From positions 1 to 33,790 of the IMG/VR virus record IMGVR_UViG_2529292829_000010: 33,790 nucleotides of DNA. One strand, 5' to 3'. A program made the translations under genes and the position numbers. The stretch comes from a virus. Lineage: Duplodnaviria; Heunggongvirae; Uroviricota; Caudoviricetes. Below are positions 1,307 through 16,998 of this stretch, in pieces. The notes beneath the pieces are model-generated. The model was not told the DNA's origin. It ran no database searches and saw nothing but the letters and a program-made list of their open reading frames with translations. How positions within the stretch are numbered: position 1 is the stretch's first letter; each line of letters begins with the position of its first letter.

Positions 1307-3787
1307 TTAAAAATCAACCGGATTCGGGATCAGTTTTTGCCAGATTGCTGAAACGTATTTTGCCTGGTGACGGGCATCATCCAGCGCATTGTGGCGCACG
1401 CCTTCAAATGGAATAACGATTCTGGCATCAAAGTCGATTGTTTTTCCCAGCTCAACGATTGTGCGTACATCGCGATCGTTGTAGTAACGCCACGGGCAGG
1501 GGATCCCCTGCCGTTCGTATGAACGGCGCAAAATTGCGTTATCGAAAGTTGCACCATTACCCCATACCTGAACGAATTTTTCATCTGAGTATTCGTGGAT
1601 GAACTCCCGAAACCGCGAAAGGGCATCCTTCAGTTTTACCTGGTCTGTTAAAATGGCAGCTCTGGCTTCACTGGACTGCTTCAGCCACCATTCGATGGTT
1701 CCACCGTCAGGAACAGCCCCTGTATTCATTGCGTCAGTCAGACTGATAACGATATAAAATACTGGCCCGATTTCCCCTGTTTGTGGGTCGAAGAAAACCG
1801 CACCAATAACCACGATGGGCGCATTGGTGTTGGTTCCCATTGTTTCAAGGTCGATCATCAGGTGATACCACACTCTGCTGGTGGATGTGATAATGTGACG
1901 ACCGTTCACCGCAATTAAGGGAGCTGCCGTCTCGCCAGTTTCATTATCGCTGGCGTGGTCCTGAGCGCTGCCAGCATTCTCCTTGTGTGGATGTTCAGCG
2001 CCTTCCATTTCCTTCGGATCATTTTCCTGAACTTCAACCTGATTCTTGTCATCGAATGTTTCCTGGTATGTTGCGTCGCCCATCACCGCGCCACAATCAG
2101 GGCAGTTGCCGCCACCGATCTGACCGCAGGCGGTGCAGACTTTTTCCGCTTCCTGTTGTGCTACCGGTTCGGATTGTTTCGTTTCTGGCTCGTTTTGTTG
2201 CGTATTTGGGCTGTTTTGTTCCGCTTTCTGGTCGTTCTGTTCCGTTTCTTGCTGGTTCTGGTTCACAGTATCGCGGGTCTGGATCCCCTTAACCCATTTC
2301 GGATCATTCGGGTCGCTAATCCCTGCAACAAATTCACCACGTGATACTGCAAGCAGTTCATCGGCGTCAGGCTGGCTGATATTGGCTGCCTGCATAATTT
2401 TGTTTACTTCGTTAGCGGTAACTTTTACCGGCCCTGGTTGTGCGGTCGTGTCAGATGCACCAGTATTTTGTTGTGAACCTGAGTATGTACCGTTTTTGCG
2501 GGCGAAATATTCTTCTTTCGTGATTTCAGTAGCCCCTGCAGCCAGTGCCTTATCCAGACCAGAAAGTTTGTTTGCGCGACCGTATTTTTCGCCATCCTTG
2601 TCGGTGAAGAGGAAGTAGAACGGCCCCTCACGCTCTACAGATGGTTCGACTTCCACTTTGCATTCGGTTTTTTCGTTGTCCGGAATTGCCGTTTCCACTG
2701 CATCAGTTTCTGGTACTGGCGACGAGAGAGTATCAGTTGCGCTCTGATTTGTTCCTTCATCTTCAAACACGCCCTTTGTAGTCAGGTATTCAGTAATGTA
2801 TTTGTTCAGTGCCACAGGATCTTTGTGAATGTCGATCGGACGTTCACGGACAAGGCCAAAAATAGTCTGGCGGTCGTAGCGAAGGGCATCAGGCTGTTTG
2901 CGCATCGATGCCGAGATACGCTTCCAGTCTTCGCGGTCGTTGTCGATAACTTCATTTTTTGCCCAGCGATGGATGCTGCCGTCAATGTTTCCGGCATCCA
3001 CATCACCAGGCCAGAGAGCGTAGGCCAGTTCGTCATCCAGTGTTTTCCATGTCTGCTTGTATTCGCGATGAGTGGCAGCAATGACCGGGTTGATTTTTCC
3101 TGTTGAATTTTCAGTGTTCTGTTGATTGACTCTGGCGCGGGCAAGATCAACAACAGACGTGTATTTTCCGGTTTCCTTGCGTTCACCTTCGCGACGTTTT
3201 TTCCAGATGCGCATCTCTGCCTGAATTTCGGGCCATTTGGCACCAGGCTTACATTTATGCTTAACCCACCCGATGGCATGCAGCTTAAGCTCCGGATACA
3301 TGGCGTTAACTTCTGGCATTTTCATCAACGCTTCAACGATATGTCCGTCGAATGTTGCCATGTCTTCCTGCAACAATTCCTGTGCGCTAATAACCATATC
3401 AACGGTGATGTTTTCACATGTGTCGAACTTAACCATGACAGCGTTCTGTACTTCAGGGGCCAGCTTGTCAAAAGTGACGTTCATCGGATCTGATTCAGTC
3501 TCAACCGGAACAAAGGAAGCAGACTCCTCATCCCAGCGGTTTTCCTGCATATATTCAGCATCCCAGGAATCGAGGGCAGGGCGGGGTATACCGGGTTTAT
3601 CCTCGCAAACAAGAAATTTATAAGCGCAGTCCTGAGCAGCCGGATATTGCTCCAGGAATTGCCAGGTAAATTTGGCACGGGCGCGGCGTTCGTCACCGGC
3701 TTCAATGGCAGTGGCTACAGCAACTGCACCTTCTTCCTTTATTGCCTGTTCGTCCGGAATGGCAGCGCAAATAAAGACTTTACTCAT
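1307..3787 (-). CDS. Large early-left protein, 826 aa: unknown N-terminal domain, Cys4 zinc ribbon, acidic linker, C-terminal DnaQ-like DEDDh 3'-5' exonuclease
   Basis: ATG at 3785-3787 with GAGG upstream. Exo motifs in the C-terminus: MIDLETMG (Exo I), WGNGATFDNAIL (Exo II), HNALDDARHQAKY (Exo III). CTACGQIGGGNCPDCG zinc ribbon. Gln/Glu/Asn-rich low-complexity linker. Confidence 0.8.
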   Translation of the reverse strand: MSKVFICAAIPDEQAIKEEGAVAVATAIEAGDERRARAKFTWQFLEQYPAAQDCAYKFLVCEDKPGIPRPALDSWDAEYMQENRWDEESASFVPVETESDPMNVTFDKLAPEVQNAVMVKFDTCENITVDMVISAQELLQEDMATFDGHIVEALMKMPEVNAMYPELKLHAIGWVKHKCKPGAKWPEIQAEMRIWKKRREGERKETGKYTSVVDLARARVNQQNTENSTGKINPVIAATHREYKQTWKTLDDELAYALWPGDVDAGNIDGSIHRWAKNEVIDNDREDWKRISASMRKQPDALRYDRQTIFGLVRERPIDIHKDPVALNKYITEYLTTKGVFEDEGTNQSATDTLSSPVPETDAVETAIPDNEKTECKVEVEPSVEREGPFYFLFTDKDGEKYGRANKLSGLDKALAAGATEITKEEYFARKNGTYSGSQQNTGASDTTAQPGPVKVTANEVNKIMQAANISQPDADELLAVSRGEFVAGISDPNDPKWVKGIQTRDTVNQNQQETEQNDQKAEQNSPNTQQNEPETKQSEPVAQQEAEKVCTACGQIGGGNCPDCGAVMGDATYQETFDDKNQVEVQENDPKEMEGAEHPHKENAGSAQDHASDNETGETAAPLIAVNGRHIITSTSRVWYHLMIDLETMGTNTNAPIVVIGAVFFDPQTGEIGPVFYIVISLTDAMNTGAVPDGGTIEWWLKQSSEARAAILTDQVKLKDALSRFREFIHEYSDEKFVQVWGNGATFDNAILRRSYERQGIPCPWRYYNDRDVRTIVELGKTIDFDARIVIPFEGVRHNALDDARHQAKYVSAIWQKLIPNPVDF

Positions 3788-4424: not shown

Positions 4425-4482
4425 AAAAAGGGCGGCAGAGCAGTCACGGAGTAAAACTGATACCGCCAAACGTCACCAGAAA
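4425..4482 (-). ncRNA. dicF: DicF-like small regulatory RNA (ftsZ translation inhibitor)
   Basis: Minus-strand transcript 5'-UUUCUGGUGACGUUUGGCGGUAUCAGUUUUACUCCGUGACUGCUCUGCCGCCCUUUUU-3' matches my recollection of DicF, with a GC-rich 3' stem and U-run. Sits directly upstream of dicB, as in the Qin dicB operon. Confidence 0.75.
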
Positions 4483-8343: not shown

Positions 8344-8797
8344 GCAGCAAATCCGACAGGTCTGCCGCCAGTGCATGGACCGCTGCCGGGCGGGTGAAAC
8401 ATGGCCTCCGGACCTGGCTGAGTTTGTGGCACTGATTTCGGAGAGTGGGGCAAATCCATTTGGTCTGACGGTGGATGCTGTGATGGAGGAGTACCGTCGC
8501 TGGCGCAATGAGTCCTGGCGATACGACGGAAGCGATAAATACCCATGGACTCAGCCTGTGCTGTATCACATTTGCCTCGAGATGCGTTCAAAGGGGATTG
8601 AGCGCCAGATGACCGAAGGGGAATTAAAACGGCTTGCAGAACGGCAGCTGACGAAATGGGCAAAGCATGTTAGTAACGGCCTGAGCGTTCCGCCAGTCCG
8701 GCGACAACTGGCGGCACCCAAACGCCCGTCGGGACCAACGCCAATTGAGTTACTGAAACAGGAATATGAACGCCGGAAAGCGGCTGGGTTTGTTTGA
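8132..8797 (+). CDS. Replication protein P-like helicase loader, 221 aa
   Basis: C-terminal similarity to lambda P: YPW..., [14 protein letters not shown] versus [24 protein letters not shown] versus SPGQFVAW. ATG at 8132 has AAGGGGG upstream. Overlaps the O-like gene by 212 nt in another frame; later starts at 8255 or 8337 are possible. Confidence 0.75.
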
Positions 8798-8831
8798 GTT
8801 GAGAAGTAATTTTTACCGGGAGGAAATTTTA

Positions 8832-9593
8832 ATGGAGACCGTTTTTGACGCACTGAAAGCGATGGGAAAAGCTACGTCGGTAGAACTGGCTGAGCGACTT
8901 GATATCAGTCGTGAAGAAGTGCTGAACGAACTATGGGAACTGAAAAAGGCTGGTTTCGTTGATAAAAGCGCGTACACCTGGCGTGTGGCTGATAACAACG
9001 TTCAGCAGGAACAGCCAGCGCCAGAAGAACAGCCGGAAGAAACCTCCACGGCGACAGTAGCGAAAATCTCAGAGTGCGATTTAACCGCGACGATTGAACA
9101 ACGCGGACCACAAACGGCTGATGAGCTGGCTACATTGTTTGGTACCACATCACGCAAAGTGGCTTCAACGCTGGCAATGGCAATCAGCAAAGGCCGTCTG
9201 ATTCGTGCTAATCAGGACGGTAAATTTCGTTACTGTATGCCGGGCGATAATTTACCAGCAGAGCCGAAAGCAGCATCGGTAGCGGAAACTGATGGTAAAG
9301 CCTTTCCTCAGCCTGCATGCGTTGCGTTACCAGTACAGGAAGCTGCAACACAGGAAGATATTAAAACAGAGACTGTGGCGGACATTGTGCAGTCGCTGCC
9401 ATCGTTTACTGAAACGCGAGCGGATGACCTGGTTTTACCATCGCTGCATATGGCAAACCGCGAACTGCGTCGGGCGAAAAATCATGTCCAGAAGTGGGAG
9501 CGAGTCTGCGCCGCGCTGCGGGAGCTGAACAAGCACCGGGATATTGTACGACAGATTACTGATTCTTCCCGCCATGTTGCATCGGAAAAGTGA
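8832..9593 (+). CDS. Hypothetical protein with two winged-helix-like segments and a C-terminal helical region, 253 aa
   Basis: ATG at 8832 with GGGAGG upstream. Segments [30 protein letters not shown] and [32 protein letters not shown] look like wHTH. Confidence 0.65.
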
Positions 9594-10586: not shown

Positions 10587-11273
10587 ATGACCACAATAAA
10601 TACGTTTATGACAGTTGCTGATTTCAAACGGCCTAAATTGGAGCTCCCAAACGGGGCAAACAAACTACTACTGCACTCTTGCTGTGCTCCATGTTCCGGT
10701 GAAGTGATGGAGGCGCTTCAGGCCTCGGGAATCGACTACACCATCTTTTTCTACAACCCGAACATTCATCCTCAGAAAGAGTATTTAATTCGTAAGGATG
10801 AGAATATTCGCTTTGCTGAACAACACGGCGTGCAGTTTATCGATGCTGATTACGACACAGACAACTGGTTTGAACGTGCCAAAGGAATGGAATGGGAGCC
10901 CGAGAGGGGGATCCGTTGTACCATGTGTTTTGACATGCGTTTTGAGCGGACAGCGTTGTACGCTGCTGAAAATGGTTTCAGTGTGATCAGCAGTTCGCTG
11001 GGCATTTCACGCTGGAAAAATATGCAGCAGGTTAACGACTGTGGGCGGCGAGCCGTCGCGCATTATCCGGGAATGGTGTACTGGGATTATAACTGGCGCA
11101 AGCAGGGCGGCTCGTCCCGTATGATTGAAATCAGCAAGCGCGAAAAATTCTATCAGCAGGAATATTGTGGCTGTGTGTATTCTCTGCGCGATACCAATCT
11201 ACACCGCAAATCTCAGGGACGCCCTCTTATCAAAATTGGTCAACTCCACTACGGTAAAGAAGAGAAGGAGTGA
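10587..11273 (+). CDS. QueH-like (DUF208) epoxyqueuosine reductase family protein, 228 aa
   Basis: Motif [11 protein letters not shown] near the N-terminus, plus RCTMCFD and YCGCVY Cys clusters, as I recall for DUF208/QueH. Preceded by two stem-loops and an AT-rich leader. Weak SD, so start is uncertain. Confidence 0.7.
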
Positions 11274-11399
11274 TTTTATGGATCACCTTTCTGATTGATT
11301 TCATATTGGCGAGGTAGCAGGAGTTAAGTAGAATTGCTGCGGGTGCTTGAGGCTATCTGTCTCAGGCATGAACACCAAAAGGCAGATAGAGAAAAGCCC

Positions 11400-11462
11400 C
11401 AGTTAACATTACGCGTCCTGCAAGACGCTTAACATTAATCTGAGGCCATATCTATGCGACAC
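11400..11462 (-). ncRNA. Putative Sok-like antisense RNA
   Basis: Minus-strand promoter-like TTGACC (plus 11491-11496) with a weak -10 near 11466-11471. Antisense to the mok-like start at 11454. Hairpin GCGUCUUGCAGGACGC (plus 11412-11427) near the predicted 3' end. Boundaries inferred. Confidence 0.35.
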
Positions 11463-11513
11463 ATAGAGATTAGCCTCTTACGGACCGAAAGGTCAAGGAG
11501 AAGCAGGCTATGA
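11454..11513 (+). CDS. mok-like leader ORF, 19 codons, translationally coupled to hok
   Basis: ATG at 11454; its TGA stop (11511-11513) overlaps the hok ATG (11510-11512). Confidence 0.35.
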   Translation: MRHIEISLLRTERSRRSRL

Positions 11514-13168: not shown

Positions 13169-13540
13169 ATGCGTATAGAGTTTGTTTTGCCTTACCCGCC
13201 AACGGTGAACACCTACTGGCGACGTCGTGGCAGTACATATTTTGTATCAAAAGCCGGTGAGCGTTATCGCCGTGATGTGGCGCTCATTGTTCGCCAGCAG
13301 CGACTGAAATTAAATCTGTCCGGAAGGCTAGCGATCAGGATTATTGTGGAGCCACCGGATAAGCGCCGTCGTGACCTGGACAATATCCTGAAAGCGCCAC
13401 TGGATGCACTGACACATGCGGGACTGCTTATCGACGACGAGCAGTTTGATGAAATTAATATTGTGCGCAGTCAGCTTGTACCTGGTGGTCGGCTGGGCGT
13501 GAAGATTTACGAAATTACAGGTGGTAACGATGGCACGTGA
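13169..13540 (+). CDS. rusA: Holliday junction resolvase RusA, 123 aa
   Basis: [31 protein letters not shown] closely parallels E. coli RusA [31 protein letters not shown]. AGAGG RBS. Confidence 0.9.
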
Positions 13541-13895
13541 TATTCAGATGGTTCTTGAGCGTTGGGGAGCGTGGGTGGCAAATAATCATGAGGATGTCAC
13601 ATGGCCATCGATTGCTGCTGGCTTTAAAGGATTAATACCGTCGAAAGTTAAATCGCGTCCGCAATGTTCCGACGATGACGCAATGATCATTTGTGGCTGT
13701 ATGGCCCGGTTGAATAAGAACAACAAAGAATTACACGATTTGCTGGTAGATTATTACGTGGCGGGCATGACGTTTATGGCGCTAGCACGAAAGCATGGTC
13801 GTTCGGATTGCTGGGTTGGCCGTTTGTTGCAAAAGGCTGAAGGGATAGTTGACGGCATGTTGATGATGCTTGATATCAAGCTGGACATGGACTGA
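13530..13895 (+). CDS. Late-gene antiterminator Q (short QuuD-type), 121 aa
   Basis: ATG at 13530 six nt after AGGTGG; overlaps the rusA stop. Cys cluster [16 protein letters not shown]. Canonical Q position between rusA and the late region. Confidence 0.75.
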
Positions 13896-13913
13896 TAAAA
13901 CTTAACTCACATA

Positions 13914-13933
13914 CCCTCTCCATGCGGAGAGGG
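13914..13933. terminator. Hairpin between convergent Q and lipoprotein genes (possible bidirectional terminator)
   Basis: CCCTCTCC-ATGC-GGAGAGGG, 8-bp stem. U-rich sequence on both sides is not immediately adjacent. Confidence 0.4.
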
Positions 13934-13939
13934 TATGAA

Positions 13940-14419
13940 TTAAATGTTTTTATAATAACTCGCTTTTTCGTTAAAATTATTTTTGTTTTCTCTGGATGGA
14001 GAACTTACGTAGTTTTCCCATGCGCTATACGTTTTGATTAATGCTTCTCGCTCTGTAGGTGATTTTGTGTTTGCCTTGAGTTTTTCAAATGGTTCTTTTG
14101 CTGCATTTAAAACGATCATCATTTGCTCGATGTCGCAGTCAGCGATTGCTTTTGATATATCGGGATCCCAGCCAACTCTCACTAACATATCTTGCTTGCT
14201 GGAAGTAATAAATTGTGTAGTGTTGATTATCATTTCTCCCTTATATAGAAGCTTTAAAAAATTATTTTTGTTAACTTGCTGGGGCGTGTTGTCCAAGGTG
14301 ATATTTTCGCATTTCTTTAAATACGCATAATGATCACTATTTCTGTTTTCTGCGGAAGATTGAGCCGTACACCCTGTAATGATCAATGTACTTAATAATG
14401 TCAATGCTATTTTTTTCAT
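13940..14419 (-). CDS. Lipoprotein of unknown function, 159 aa (moron)
   Basis: Signal peptide MKKIALTLLSTLIITGC with lipobox ITGC. Gene is visibly AT-rich relative to its flanks and oriented against the surrounding operons. Confidence 0.75.
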   Translation of the reverse strand: MKKIALTLLSTLIITGCTAQSSAENRNSDHYAYLKKCENITLDNTPQQVNKNNFLKLLYKGEMIINTTQFITSSKQDMLVRVGWDPDISKAIADCDIEQMMIVLNAAKEPFEKLKANTKSPTEREALIKTYSAWENYVSSPSRENKNNFNEKASYYKNI

Positions 14420-14495
14420 ATGGGCCTGCTTGTGAATTATCGCACAAGAAAAGTTCGACTAAATTTTATCGTAAAAAGACATCGCCGAACAGATG

Positions 14496-14523
14496 TTTAC
14501 AATCGTAAAAAATCAAATATGCT
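14496..14523 (+). promoter_or_regulatory. Candidate Q-dependent late promoter (PR'-like)
   Basis: -35 TTTACA (14496-14501), 16-nt spacer, -10 TATGCT (14518-14523). A short-transcript terminator follows about 35 nt downstream. Confidence 0.35.
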
Positions 14524-14557
14524 GTTAAGAGTGGTTACTTCGCCACACAGCTTAAAC

Positions 14558-14577
14558 CCGCCGCCAGGCGGTTTTTT
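14558..14577 (+). terminator. Candidate tR'-like intrinsic terminator
   Basis: CCGCC-GCCA-GGCGG followed by TTTTTT. Confidence 0.5.
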
Positions 14578-14700
14578 GTGTCCGAAAAACGGCGCAGTAC
14601 GTTAAACGTGCTGGTGGTTGCGAATACCGGTCTTTCAGCTTGCTGGCTTTTTCGACAAGAGTTATTGGTATGTCACGTTAACCAGAAAAGGGAAAAAGAC

Positions 14701-14898
14701 ATGCTAAAACAGCAGGATATGACCGAAACTGCCAGAGTGGTGTTTAATGAATTAAGCGTCACCGAACCGGCGACCGTCGGGGAGATTGCGCAGAATACTT
14801 ACCTTTCACGCGAACGCTGCCAGTTAATACTGACCCAGCTTGTTATGGCGGGTCTGGCAGATTATCAGTTCGGTTGTTACAGACGCCTTCCGCGGTGA
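14701..14898 (+). CDS. Small winged-helix-like protein, 65 aa
   Basis: ATG at 14701. PATVGEIAQNTYLSRERCQLILTQLVMAGL resembles a wHTH recognition region. Weak RBS. Confidence 0.45.
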   Translation: MLKQQDMTETARVVFNELSVTEPATVGEIAQNTYLSRERCQLILTQLVMAGLADYQFGCYRRLPR

Positions 14899-15048
14899 AG
14901 GTTTTTTAATTTGTGGTAATGGGCGGCTGGTGGGTGTTAGCGGCCCCTGCCAGCCATCTGCTCATGCGTTGTGGTCACAAGCAAACCTCAGGCCCATCTG
15001 CTTTGCGCAAAAGCGGTATGAGCCTATCAGAGAAGTGCTTATTGATCT

Positions 15049-16098
15049 ATGGCTAATACTGTAAAAATATCCAGTTGTGAGTTAATCAACGCTGATTGTC
15101 TGGAATTTATCCAGACCTTACCGGAAAATTCTGTCGATCTGATAGTCACAGACCCGCCATACTTTAAAGTGAAGCCCGAGGGCTGGGATAACCAGTGGAA
15201 GGGCGACGATGATTACCTGAAATGGCTGAATCAGTGTCTGGCGCAGTTCTGGCGGGTACTGAAGCCCGCAGGAAGTCTTTACCTGTTCTGTGGTCATCGC
15301 CTGGCATCTGACACCGAAATCATGATGCGTCAGCGCTTTAATGTGCTGAACCACATTATCTGGGCGAAGCCGTCAGGGCGCTGGAACGGGTGCAACAAGG
15401 AAAGCCTGCGGGCGTATTTCCCGGCAACAGAGCGCATTCTGTTTGCAGAACATTATCAGGGGCCATACCAGCCCAAAAATGACGGCTATGAGGCAAAGGG
15501 GCGTGAGCTAAAACAGCACGTCATGGCCCCGCTGATTTCTTACTTTCGTGATGCGCGTGAATCACTGGGAATAACGTCAAAACAGATAGCGGAAGCCACC
15601 GGAAAGAAAAACATGGCTTCGCACTGGTTTGGTACCAGTCAGTGGCAATTACCGAACGAGGGTGATTACAACAAATTGCAGGCGTTGTTTGCGCGTGTTG
15701 CGGCAGAAAAGCATCAGCGAGGGGAACTGGAAAAGCCACACCACCAGCTGGTCAGCACATACAGTGAACTGAACCGGCAATATGCCAGCCTGCTGGAAGA
15801 GTATAAATCTTTGCGGCGTTATTTTTCCGTATCGGCTGCCGTTCCGTATACGGATGTCTGGACGCATAAATCCGTGCAGTTTTATCCGGGCAAACATCCC
15901 TGTGAAAAACCGGCAGATATGTTGCGGCAGATAATTGAGGCCAGCAGTCACCCTGGTGATTTGGTTGCGGATTTTTTTATGGGTTCAGGTTCAACGGTAA
16001 AAGCGGCGATGGCACTGGGGCGTTGTGCGATTGGTGTTGAGCTGGAGACCGGACGTTTTGAACAGACAGTCAGGGAAGTTCAGGATTTAATCGTTTGA
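15049..16098 (+). CDS. DNA methyltransferase, beta-class amino-MTase (probably N6-adenine), 349 aa
   Basis: Motif IV IVTDPPYF near the N-terminus and motif I DFFMGSGST near the C-terminus (IV-TRD-I order). No adjacent restriction endonuclease. Confidence 0.85.
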   Translation: MANTVKISSCELINADCLEFIQTLPENSVDLIVTDPPYFKVKPEGWDNQWKGDDDYLKWLNQCLAQFWRVLKPAGSLYLFCGHRLASDTEIMMRQRFNVLNHIIWAKPSGRWNGCNKESLRAYFPATERILFAEHYQGPYQPKNDGYEAKGRELKQHVMAPLISYFRDARESLGITSKQIAEATGKKNMASHWFGTSQWQLPNEGDYNKLQALFARVAAEKHQRGELEKPHHQLVSTYSELNRQYASLLEEYKSLRRYFSVSAAVPYTDVWTHKSVQFYPGKHPCEKPADMLRQIIEASSHPGDLVADFFMGSGSTVKAAMALGRCAIGVELETGRFEQTVREVQDLIV

Positions 16099-16148
16099 AA
16101 CGGATGAGATTGCAGAATTAATTACGCACCATTATTATTCTGCTCCCG

Positions 16149-16224
16149 GCCCTTTAGCTCAGTGGTGAGAGCGAGCGACTCATAATCGCCAGGTCGCTGG
16201 TTCAAATCCAGCAAGGGCCACCAT
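16149..16224 (+). tRNA. tRNA-Ile2 (anticodon CAU, lysidine type; ileZ/ileX-like)
   Basis: Cloverleaf: acceptor GGCCCTT/AAGGGCC, D-arm GCTC-AGTGGTGA-GAGC, anticodon loop CUCAUAA (CAT at 16182-16184), T-loop TTCAAAT, encoded CCA. Close to E. coli ileX as I recall it. Confidence 0.85.
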
Positions 16225-16231
16225 CACATAC

Positions 16232-16305
16232 CGCCATTAGCTCATCGACAGAGAGTGCCAGCTTTCGAAACTGGCTGTGTGGGGCTCGGGTCCCCGATGG
16301 CAATC
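16232..16305 (+). tRNA. Degenerate tRNA-like element (possible pseudo-tRNA, Arg-like UCG)
   Basis: tRNA-like arms, but the D-loop lacks GG, the anticodon stem GCCAG/CTGGC encloses a 9-nt loop CTTTCGAAA, the T-loop is CTCGGGT (no A58), the acceptor pairing is imperfect and there is no CCA. Confidence 0.35.
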
Positions 16306-16320
16306 TATTATCTGCATTAT

Positions 16321-16397
16321 GCGTTGTTAGCTCAGCCGGACAGAGCAATTGCCTTCTAAGCAATCGGTCACTGGTTCGAATCCAGTACAACGCGCCA
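16321..16397 (+). tRNA. tRNA-Arg (anticodon UCU, decodes AGA; argO-like)
   Basis: Acceptor GCGTTGT/ACAACGC, anticodon stem ATTGC/GCAAT with loop CTTCTAA (TCT at 16355-16357), T-loop TTCGAAT, encoded CCA. Confidence 0.85.
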
Positions 16398-16411
16398 CGC
16401 TTATTTTTCCA

Positions 16412-16435
16412 GGCTCGCTTCGGCGGGCCTTTTTC
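16412..16435 (+). terminator. Intrinsic terminator after the tRNA array
   Basis: GGCTCGC-TTCG-GCGGGCC (one G-U pair) followed by TTTTTC. Confidence 0.65.
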
Positions 16436-16572
16436 ATATCCGCGCCACGCCCGGCGAATATCAAAAAACCACAGAGCCTTTCAGGGGTGAGCTTACGGGA
16501 TGGTCAGTGTGACTTTCTCTGTGGGCTGGTCACCACCGGGCGCAGGCTCACCCACTAAAAGGAAAAGTCACG

Positions 16573-16998
16573 ATGTTTGGTATTTTCAAAAAGAAAACCC
16601 GCAAGGCCATTACCGAAGTGAAGAAGATGGAGAACCGCGACGCAGTGGAGGCGACCGTCTGGGGCGCGTATTCCATTGCATACGCTGACGGCACCTGTGA
16701 TGCGAAAGAAATCGCAGTACTGGAGAAAACCATTGCAGCACTTCCTGCCTTTGCGCCGTTCTCCGGTGAGATTGCCCAGATGAGCGCCAATATCCGCGCC
16801 CGTTATGAAGCATCCCCGCGTTCAGCCAATGCCGAAGCCCTTCGTCAGCTGGCTGATGTCGCCGGTACTGATGATGCAGTTAATGTGCTGTGCCTGTGTC
16901 TGGATATCGCTGACCAGGATGGCATTGGTCCGGATGAAGAAGCACAGCTCAAGAAAATTGCGCAGGCGCTTCAGCTACCGCTGGAGCAGTACCTGTGA
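16573..16998 (+). CDS. TerB-like domain protein, 141 aa
   Basis: Helical pattern of acidic and hydrophobic residues (AYADGTCDAKEIAVLEKTIAAL ... LDIADQDGIGPDEEAQLKKIAQAL) typical of TerB/DjlA-N-type domains. AAGGA 10 nt upstream. Confidence 0.6.
   Translation: MFGIFKKKTRKAITEVKKMENRDAVEATVWGAYSIAYADGTCDAKEIAVLEKTIAALPAFAPFSGEIAQMSANIRARYEASPRSANAEALRQLADVAGTDDAVNVLCLCLDIADQDGIGPDEEAQLKKIAQALQLPLEQYL

Follow-up and report, generated by a model that had tools for sequence, protein, structure and literature searches.

The stretch of DNA considered here (hereafter the window, 33,790 nucleotides long) comprises positions 1 to 33,790 of IMGVR_UViG_2529292829_000010, a record of the IMG/VR virus database assigned to the Caudoviricetes. 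Between positions 14,701 and 16,098, the gene of a small winged-helix protein is followed on the same strand by that of a DNA methyltransferase, and the spacer separating the two holds a structured leader RNA. A preliminary description of the locus, made from the sequence alone, had drawn attention to the two genes. Its account of the enzyme's class, orphan status and location has been borne out, its controller and its unknown target sequence have not, and the leader RNA in the spacer was overlooked. The three components are the following.

14701–14898, + strand: gene of a minimal winged-helix protein of 65 amino acids (aa), PHROG 331, named "TrmB family transcriptional regulator" in RefSeq
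14920–15048, + strand: structured 5′ leader RNA of the methyltransferase, ~130 nucleotides (nt), recognized from covariation and alignments
15049–16098, + strand: predicted M.EcoGII-family beta-class N6-adenine methyltransferase, 349 aa, assigned from Pfam PF01555, identity to M.EcoGII and motifs

Catalytic motifs had been reported near both ends of the methyltransferase, and both are present: DPPY at residues 35–38 (15151–15162), near the N-terminus, and FFMGSGS at residues 309–315, near the C-terminus, with FxGxG itself (F-M-G-S-G, F310–G314) at 15976–15990. Pfam PF01555 (N6_N4_Mtase) covers residues 29–340 with E=4.9e-44 and 151.3 bits against a cut-off of 26.7. The motif order (N-terminal DPPY, an inserted central helical domain, C-terminal FxGxG) is that of the beta class and, together with the Pfam match, upholds the earlier assignment to beta-class enzymes of the N6-adenine type. 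The preliminary description had also listed degenerate catalytic motifs as something to be checked on alignment; DPPY and FxGxG are invariant across 15 homologues aligned at 84% mean column identity. The nearest solved structures (9c3u/8urk, M.RsrI, CcrM and M.MboIIA) are all beta-class, and the helical target-recognition domain occupies approximately 15526–15759 (residues 160–237).

The neighbours of the methyltransferase gene are the winged-helix gene and the gene of a lipoprotein on one side, and tRNAs and a TerB-like gene on the other. Neither beside it nor among the other open reading frames (ORFs) of the window that were tested did Pfam or PADLOC reveal a restriction-system nuclease. The methyltransferase is therefore solitary (an orphan), as had been concluded earlier from the lack of an adjacent restriction endonuclease gene.

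The spacer of ~150 nt in front of the methyltransferase is the best-conserved non-coding part of the module, and almost all of the 50 genome loci examined retain it, irrespective of the small ORF. For its analysis, the 200 nt upstream of the methyltransferase start were collected from the 50 loci, and 38 sequences were aligned with MAFFT. The leader within the spacer comprises the following pairings, numbered as in the window.

14920–14924 with 14992–14996, + strand: P3A (UGGGC with GCCCA), which closes a three-way junction
14925–14955, + strand: P1, inside the P3A junction
14957–14962 with 14980–14985, + strand: P2, inside the P3A junction
15000–15004 with 15010–15014, + strand: hairpin P3i
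15019–15023 with 15037–15041, + strand: P5 (UGAGC/GCUUA)
15026–15030 with 15042–15046, + strand: P4 (AUCAG/CUGAU), which together with P3B (GGCCCAC/GUGAGCC) forms an alternative 3′ pairing that abuts the AUG

Three of these helices (P3A, P1 and P2) are independently predicted by RNAalifold from the MAFFT alignment. In that alignment, 92–93% of cells are paired, as compared with 30–47% when the partners are slid, and double changes occur in 8–9 pairs, as compared with ~3 in shuffles. One pair of P2, for example, occurs as C-G (20 sequences), A-U (7), U-A (7) and U-G (3), with zero unpaired cells and one gapped. Two large RNA alignments were fitted to the structural model, a procedure that favours the structure; in the diverse model-fitted alignment, compensatory changes are found in 30 of 34 pairs, doubly changed cells number 315 (89 ± 9 in shuffles), 88% of cells are paired (23–41% with slid partners), and the covariation score is 0.407 (0.145 in shuffles and 0.03–0.07 with slid partners). 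The helices vary freely in sequence, and the unpaired nucleotides are highly conserved, namely GAAAUGGGC, the CAU junction, GGUCA and AACCAAGGCCCA. In two loci (L050 and L053, the latter from Zooshikella), whole hairpins of the leader have been swapped for different sequences. The leader is thus a structured RNA maintained by compensatory substitutions.

These same observations bear on the idea that the conserved 150 nt act not as RNA but as a DNA element such as a promoter or operator, or encode a short peptide. The spacer lies upstream of a gene, the usual location of a promoter, and two mechanically called ORFs (14840–15064 and 14913–15056) overlap it. However, insertions and deletions between orthologues break the reading frames, and the two ORFs were rejected as peptides because their frames shift from one orthologue to the next. 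The spacer is GC-rich and has no match to −35 and −10 elements. Compensatory changes preserve the helices even where hairpins have been replaced, as in L050 and L053, and the G-U pairs of the leader are strand-specific, being compatible with the + strand only. A role as DNA or as a coding sequence is accordingly very improbable.

The leader does not belong to any catalogued family. A scan of 13800–16700 with the 4227 families of Rfam 15 gave no match to the leader at E≤1, and for 14880–15070 at E≤10 the only hit was a chance match to a miRNA on the opposite strand.

Its distribution follows that of the enzyme. When IMG/VR was searched with the leader motif, the ATG of a methyltransferase lay exactly 58 nt after the motif in 118 of 120 contigs, and the other two contigs are incomplete. 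A covariance model further finds the leader upstream of the homologues from Zooshikella (E about 1e-10) and Gilliamella (E about 2e-5), where the helices are rebuilt from different sequences, and, among 81 viral loci with methyltransferases 45–67% identical to the Zooshikella homologue, in 54. The more distant genome loci, with enzymes 37–52% identical to that of the window (L051, L052, L054–L057, L060, L063, L070 and L071), yielded no significant leader, even with the search filters off. The leader is therefore found only in front of this methyltransferase family, out to ~50% identity.

Two observations concern variant arrangements of the leader. In viral contigs of one distant branch (L197–L202, L206, L212 and L219), the leader does not abut the methyltransferase start but stops ~120–150 nt short of it, which suggests that this branch has a longer or different 3′ platform. 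In a Trabulsiella locus (L006), a second, weak covariance-model match (3016–3179 of that locus, + strand; 25 bits, E about 6e-4) lies ~840 nt upstream of the leader and may be a degenerate extra copy of it.

Structured leaders that govern the gene behind them are familiar from ribosomal-protein operons, from the operators of T4 genes 32 and 43, and from riboswitches. From general knowledge, the leader of the window resembles such autoregulatory leaders and riboswitches in that a structured 5′ region abuts the start codon, is conserved together with the downstream gene, and contains covarying helices. It differs from the known classes in matching none of the Rfam families. A riboswitch that senses a small molecule, for instance S-adenosylmethionine (SAM) or S-adenosylhomocysteine (SAH), and gates translation of the methyltransferase would fit the three-way junction with its conserved unpaired nucleotides and freely varying helices, the presence of mutually exclusive helices, and a 3′ part that differs between branches, as an expression platform would. 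Against this stand the tie to a single protein family, an association more typically seen where a leader binds protein than where it senses a metabolite, and the lack of resemblance to any known aptamer class. A riboswitch is thus the less likely possibility, and binding of the leader by the enzyme itself (autogenous control) is favoured over metabolite sensing because the leader is tied to one protein family.

A text search of the literature for the leader sequence returned nothing relevant, only two chance matches, and a literature search on M.EcoGII and prophage biology returned nothing on regulation. Two papers on the enzyme family (PMC5778455 and PMC11551740) make no mention of a leader RNA, of an upstream small gene, or of how the enzyme is kept harmless in nature. 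There is about an even chance that the leader represents a class of cis-regulatory RNA that has not been described before and is devoted to non-specific adenine methyltransferases of the M.EcoGII type in phages of the gammaproteobacteria. It is proposed that the leader sets or caps the dose of a toxic enzyme through translational control of the methyltransferase start, which lacks a Shine-Dalgarno sequence.

The toxicity in question is that of M.EcoGII, a 349-aa beta-class enzyme from a prophage of E. coli O104:H4 (strain C227-11, which also has M.EcoGI) (Murray et al. 2018, PMC5778455). The substrates of M.EcoGII are DNA, single-stranded DNA and RNA, in which it methylates adenine whatever the neighbouring sequence; it is silent in the lysogen, slows growth on expression, and is presumed to defeat host restriction (PMC5778455). 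The enzyme of the window, also of 349 aa, is identical to M.EcoGII at 306 of 350 aligned positions (87%), a figure accurate to ~1–2% because the reference sequences of M.EcoGII, Anc291 and SUPREM were taken from Table S1 of PMC11551740 as a machine-converted PDF with a few obvious character-recognition errors. Its identity to the resurrected ancestor Anc291 is 86%, and to SUPREM 69%. The recognition domain aligns with that of M.EcoGII without gaps at 83% identity, with differences at 13 of 78 positions, and the charged interdomain linker is likewise retained without gaps (77–84% identity, with similar counts of K+R and of D+E). M.EcoGII itself is not among the 120 cluster representatives, the best of which is 92.6% identical. 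The two enzymes further share the beta-class motif order and a four-helix recognition domain that contains a helix-turn-helix (HTH), and both are prophage-borne and lack a nuclease partner. As judged from its sequence, the window enzyme is a member of the M.EcoGII family and an orthologue of M.EcoGII.

It follows that the window enzyme is expected to methylate DNA adenines without sequence specificity. M.EcoGII, Anc291 and SUPREM have all been reported to be largely non-sequence-specific (PMC11551740), and no recognition sequence is expected for the window enzyme because of its ~87% identity to enzymes found non-specific by experiment. The preliminary description had left the target sequence as unknown; in light of the identities to M.EcoGII and Anc291, the expected answer is that there is no target sequence (PMC5778455, PMC11551740). 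The alternative is a site-specific orphan methyltransferase with a discrete recognition sequence. Databases do name close relatives "site-specific DNA-methyltransferase", PADLOC matches a Type II methyltransferase model, and the recognition domain departs from that of M.EcoGII at the 13 positions noted above. The database labels, however, are automatic family names, and the window enzyme falls within the set formed by M.EcoGII, Anc291 and SUPREM, a set with up to 30% divergence between members, every one of which is reported to be non-specific. The nearest site-specific relative, M.PflMI (CCANNNNNTGG), belongs to the beta-class family and has a similar predicted overall fold, but its identity to M.EcoGII is only ~27%, and the charged interdomain linker, which the window enzyme has, is missing from it (PMC11551740). 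Site specificity is therefore quite improbable.

The small gene upstream of the leader is a second conserved, though less constant, companion of the enzyme. Compared with 21 orthologues, the 65-aa ORF shows 199, 176 and 662 substitutions at codon positions 1, 2 and 3, a pattern that marks it as a real gene under purifying selection. The preliminary description had noted a small ORF resembling a winged HTH at 14701–14898, and both the gene and the winged-helix fold are confirmed. Its remark that the ribosome-binding site of this ORF is weak holds only in part. Orthologues share the ATG and, ~9 nt upstream of it, a purine-rich AAGG/GGGA element; of the two genes, it is the methyltransferase whose start codon has no Shine-Dalgarno sequence. 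A longer reading of 106 aa from a GTG at 14578 was rejected because the upstream extension is not conserved, the open frame there ranging from 1 to 72 codons among orthologues. In library searches, the protein matched only PHROG 331 ("unknown function") and, below threshold, TrmB.

Of 49 enterobacterial genome loci, 31 have a homologue of the 65-aa protein in front of the methyltransferase, at a constant distance of ~155 nt; among 120 viral contigs, ~100 carry one next to the methyltransferase. The other 18 genome loci lack it and have different genes adjoining the module, and none was found in ~20 of the contigs. In the distant branch of the methyltransferase, it is barely detectable, with three weak matches in 44 loci.

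In restriction-modification systems, this position is that of the C proteins, which have an Xre-type HTH fold, form dimers, recognise C-box palindromes and set the timing of the nuclease gene. Like them, the 65-aa protein is a small protein of DNA-binding type encoded just upstream of a modification gene, and the preliminary description had proposed it as a controller. A C-protein-like transcriptional controller, which would bind the DNA of the module and time or limit expression of the methyltransferase, is in keeping with the confident winged-helix fold, with the purifying selection on the gene, and with its position on the same strand ~155 nt upstream in the genome loci and contigs counted above. 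The fold, however, is a winged helix rather than the Xre-type HTH of C proteins, and the protein has no dimerisation domain. A search around the small ORF for an operator found no convincing palindrome in 14420–14700, only short direct repeats near 14437–14511, and there is no restriction gene whose expression would need to be delayed. The gene is also gone from about a third of the loci in which the methyltransferase and leader are intact, and has left only its few weak matches in the distant branch. A controller is thus unlikely. Because of the non-Xre fold, the missing operator palindrome and the want of a nuclease to regulate, the 65-aa protein is regarded instead as a frequent but dispensable accessory of the enterobacterial branch, and not as a restriction-modification C protein.

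What such an accessory might do is suggested by another prophage of the Stx type. In phiPA8, a small winged-helix protein (PNB-2) is encoded immediately upstream of the methyltransferase M.EcoPA8orf6770P, is co-transcribed with it, and forms a holoenzyme whose methylation is directed to 16S rRNA (PMC10810198). The gene order is the same in the window, and M.EcoGII by itself also methylates RNA (PMC5778455). By analogy, the winged-helix protein might be a partner subunit that redirects or restrains the enzyme, whether towards phage DNA, away from host DNA and RNA, or onto a particular RNA. The phiPA8 enzyme, however, is of a different family (MT-A70, with DPPW), is encoded near the left end of its prophage, is expressed in lysogens and acts on 16S rRNA (PMC10810198). 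M.EcoGII is fully active on its own, and the small gene is dispensable in many loci. A modulating partner is therefore an unlikely reading, put forward by analogy. The rRNA methyltransferase of Stx phages (PMC10810198) was also considered as a candidate for the same gene and rejected, since it is an MT-A70 enzyme located elsewhere in the prophage.

The two genes, the leader and the tRNAs that follow form a module that is widespread in related prophages. Positions 14508–16446 are 91% identical in nucleotide sequence to phage phiP27 (genes L23/L24), and many Stx2 phages as well as phage 1720a-02 (over 14523–16446) are 87% identical. Phage 1720a-02 had already been noted for an enzyme very similar to M.EcoGII (PMC5778455). 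Of 5426 complete E. coli genomes, 3510 (about two thirds) carry the module, at a median of two copies. The order in phiP27 is Q, a GIY-YIG-family gene, the small winged-helix gene, the methyltransferase, ileZ, argO, stx2e and holins; phiP27 and the Stx2 phages share with the window the sequence of small winged-helix gene, leader, methyltransferase and tRNAs. Stx2 phages annotate this module as "hypothetical protein + DNA methylase + ileZ/argN/argO". Two differences are seen at its borders. The position after the tRNAs, which is taken by stx in phiP27 and the Stx2 phages, holds a TerB-like gene in the window, and the place between Q and the module, which in phiP27 is occupied by the gene of the GIY-YIG nuclease family, holds a reverse-strand lipoprotein gene. 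The module is standard methyltransferase cargo of lambdoid (Stx-type) prophages, and the window enzyme is a further orthologue of a methyltransferase that has been thoroughly characterised and is in commercial use; the module itself is very common.

The window itself is a lambdoid prophage. It has an integrase at its left end, and also an S24-type repressor, replication genes, DUF968, RusA and Q; to the right lie two holins, a GH108 endolysin, a terminase and a lambda-type portal, as identified by Pfam and related scans. RusA, Q, the methyltransferase module, the two holins, the endolysin, the terminase and the portal share the + strand. The module thus lies between Q and the lysis genes, in agreement with the late-region location given in the preliminary description. 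Features of the region that bear on transcription of the module, and the tRNAs of its distal part, are listed below.

13521–13895, + strand: antiterminator Q gene (Pfam PF06530, Phage_antitermQ, E=6.4e-51)
14496–14523, + strand: sigma-70-like promoter candidate (TTTACA-16 nt-TATGCT), possibly pR′, from a consensus scan
14558–14580, + strand: terminator-like hairpin T1, resembling tR′, with CCGCC/GGCGG followed by seven T (terminator scan and sequence)
14885–14908, + strand: terminator-like hairpin T2 with a T-run, which overlaps the small-ORF stop codon and immediately precedes the leader (terminator scan)
16148–16223, + strand: tRNA with anticodon CAT (ARAGORN, Rfam), equivalent to ileZ and annotated as tRNA-Ile in related prophages
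16321–16397, + strand: tRNA-Arg (TCT) (ARAGORN, Rfam), corresponding to argO
16411–16440, + strand: terminator-like hairpin T3, after the tRNAs (terminator scan)

Homology to phiP27 and to E. coli prophages starts at 14495–14523, the position of the promoter candidate. T1 lies upstream of the small ORF, between the promoter-like site and 14701, and at the position of T2 most related loci have a variable hairpin with a U-tract, regardless of whether they contain the small ORF. In Stx phages, the stx genes are transcribed from pR′ under the control of Q (PMC7547250). Expression of the methyltransferase gene only late in the phage cycle is likely because this gene follows Q, has two terminator-like hairpins in front of it and precedes the lysis genes, and it agrees with the published silence of M.EcoGII in the lysogen. 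For the window enzyme, such silence would follow from the terminators and the post-Q position; the prophage location itself is confirmed. Just upstream of T1, three spaced copies of TTATCG(C/T)A(C/A)AA / ATCGTAAAAA at 14437–14511 overlap promoter-like sites, and these repeats could belong to a late-promoter or Q-utilisation region.

Several other features of the prophage were recorded in passing. Between the two tRNAs, a tRNA-like sequence (16231–16304, + strand) scores below threshold with Rfam (23.7 bits, gathering score 29) and is not called by ARAGORN; it probably represents the argN gene, now degenerate, of the trio ileZ-argN-argO known from Stx phages. The TerB-like gene that fills the stx position (16573–16998, + strand) belongs to PHROG 632, a "tellurite resistance" moron, and the lipoprotein gene between Q and the conserved module (13940–14419, − strand) has the lipobox LITGC and belongs to PHROG 8179 (unknown function). 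The nin-like region holds a homologue of QueH-type epoxyqueuosine reductases (10587–11273, + strand; Pfam PF02677, E=1.6e-65), that is, a tRNA-modification gene on a phage with tRNAs of its own. Two small RNAs score above the Rfam gathering score, a sok antitoxin RNA (11341–11512, + strand, 106.7 bits) and DicF (4430–4481, − strand, 76.7 bits). A DUF1627 protein (8766–9593, + strand) gives weak N-terminal winged-helix matches (TrmB, HTH_20 and others) and is the second protein of the winged-helix type in this prophage.

Taken together, these results are considered to make the following explanation probable as a whole: a cargo module of the Stx type, carrying an orthologue of M.EcoGII that methylates without specificity, is expressed late under Q, and has a leader that sets the dose of the enzyme. 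Only RNA polymerase modified by Q would read the methyltransferase gene from the late promoter, during lytic growth, such that the toxic enzyme would be off in the lysogen and made late in the lytic cycle. The enzyme would then methylate adenines on replicating phage DNA, and the progeny DNA would resist most Type I, II and III restriction systems. A role in protection against restriction, also put forward in the preliminary description, is the accepted view for the M.EcoGII family (PMC5778455). A low dose would be needed because the enzyme is toxic and because heavily modified DNA transforms E. coli less well, by 4–5 orders of magnitude (PMC5778455). The terminators, the start codon without a Shine-Dalgarno sequence, and the leader would together hold the dose low. 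Binding of the RNA by the enzyme itself, of a type known both to bind and to methylate RNA, would be the most likely route by which the leader acts, with a small ligand as the less likely one.

A number of points weigh against this explanation. The AlphaFold2 model of the methyltransferase, built on a 15-sequence alignment, is poor overall (predicted local distance difference test score, pLDDT, of 51) and gives no structural confirmation, even if helices 146–173, 177–184, 189–194, 204–223 and 231–259 within it reach pLDDT 73–87. Non-specificity is extrapolated across the 13% of residues, and 17% of those in the recognition domain, at which the window enzyme differs from M.EcoGII. In the 3′ part of the leader, both pairings fit the alignments with little covariation, and folding energies do not discriminate between them. 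With regard to late expression, the number of promoter-like sites in the scan is not above chance and the promoter assignment is weak, the reverse-strand lipoprotein gene separates Q from the module, and internal promoters are possible at the module, one upstream of the tRNAs having been reported in an Stx2 phage (PMC7547250).

The enzyme contributes little that is new about its family. What merits attention at this locus is first of all the leader RNA and, less so, the winged-helix protein. Should the leader turn out to be autoregulatory or ligand-sensing, it would constitute a new RNA family. It would then explain how phages dose a promiscuous enzyme that modifies both DNA and RNA, and it could be used to control the expression of M.EcoGII in footprinting and recording applications.

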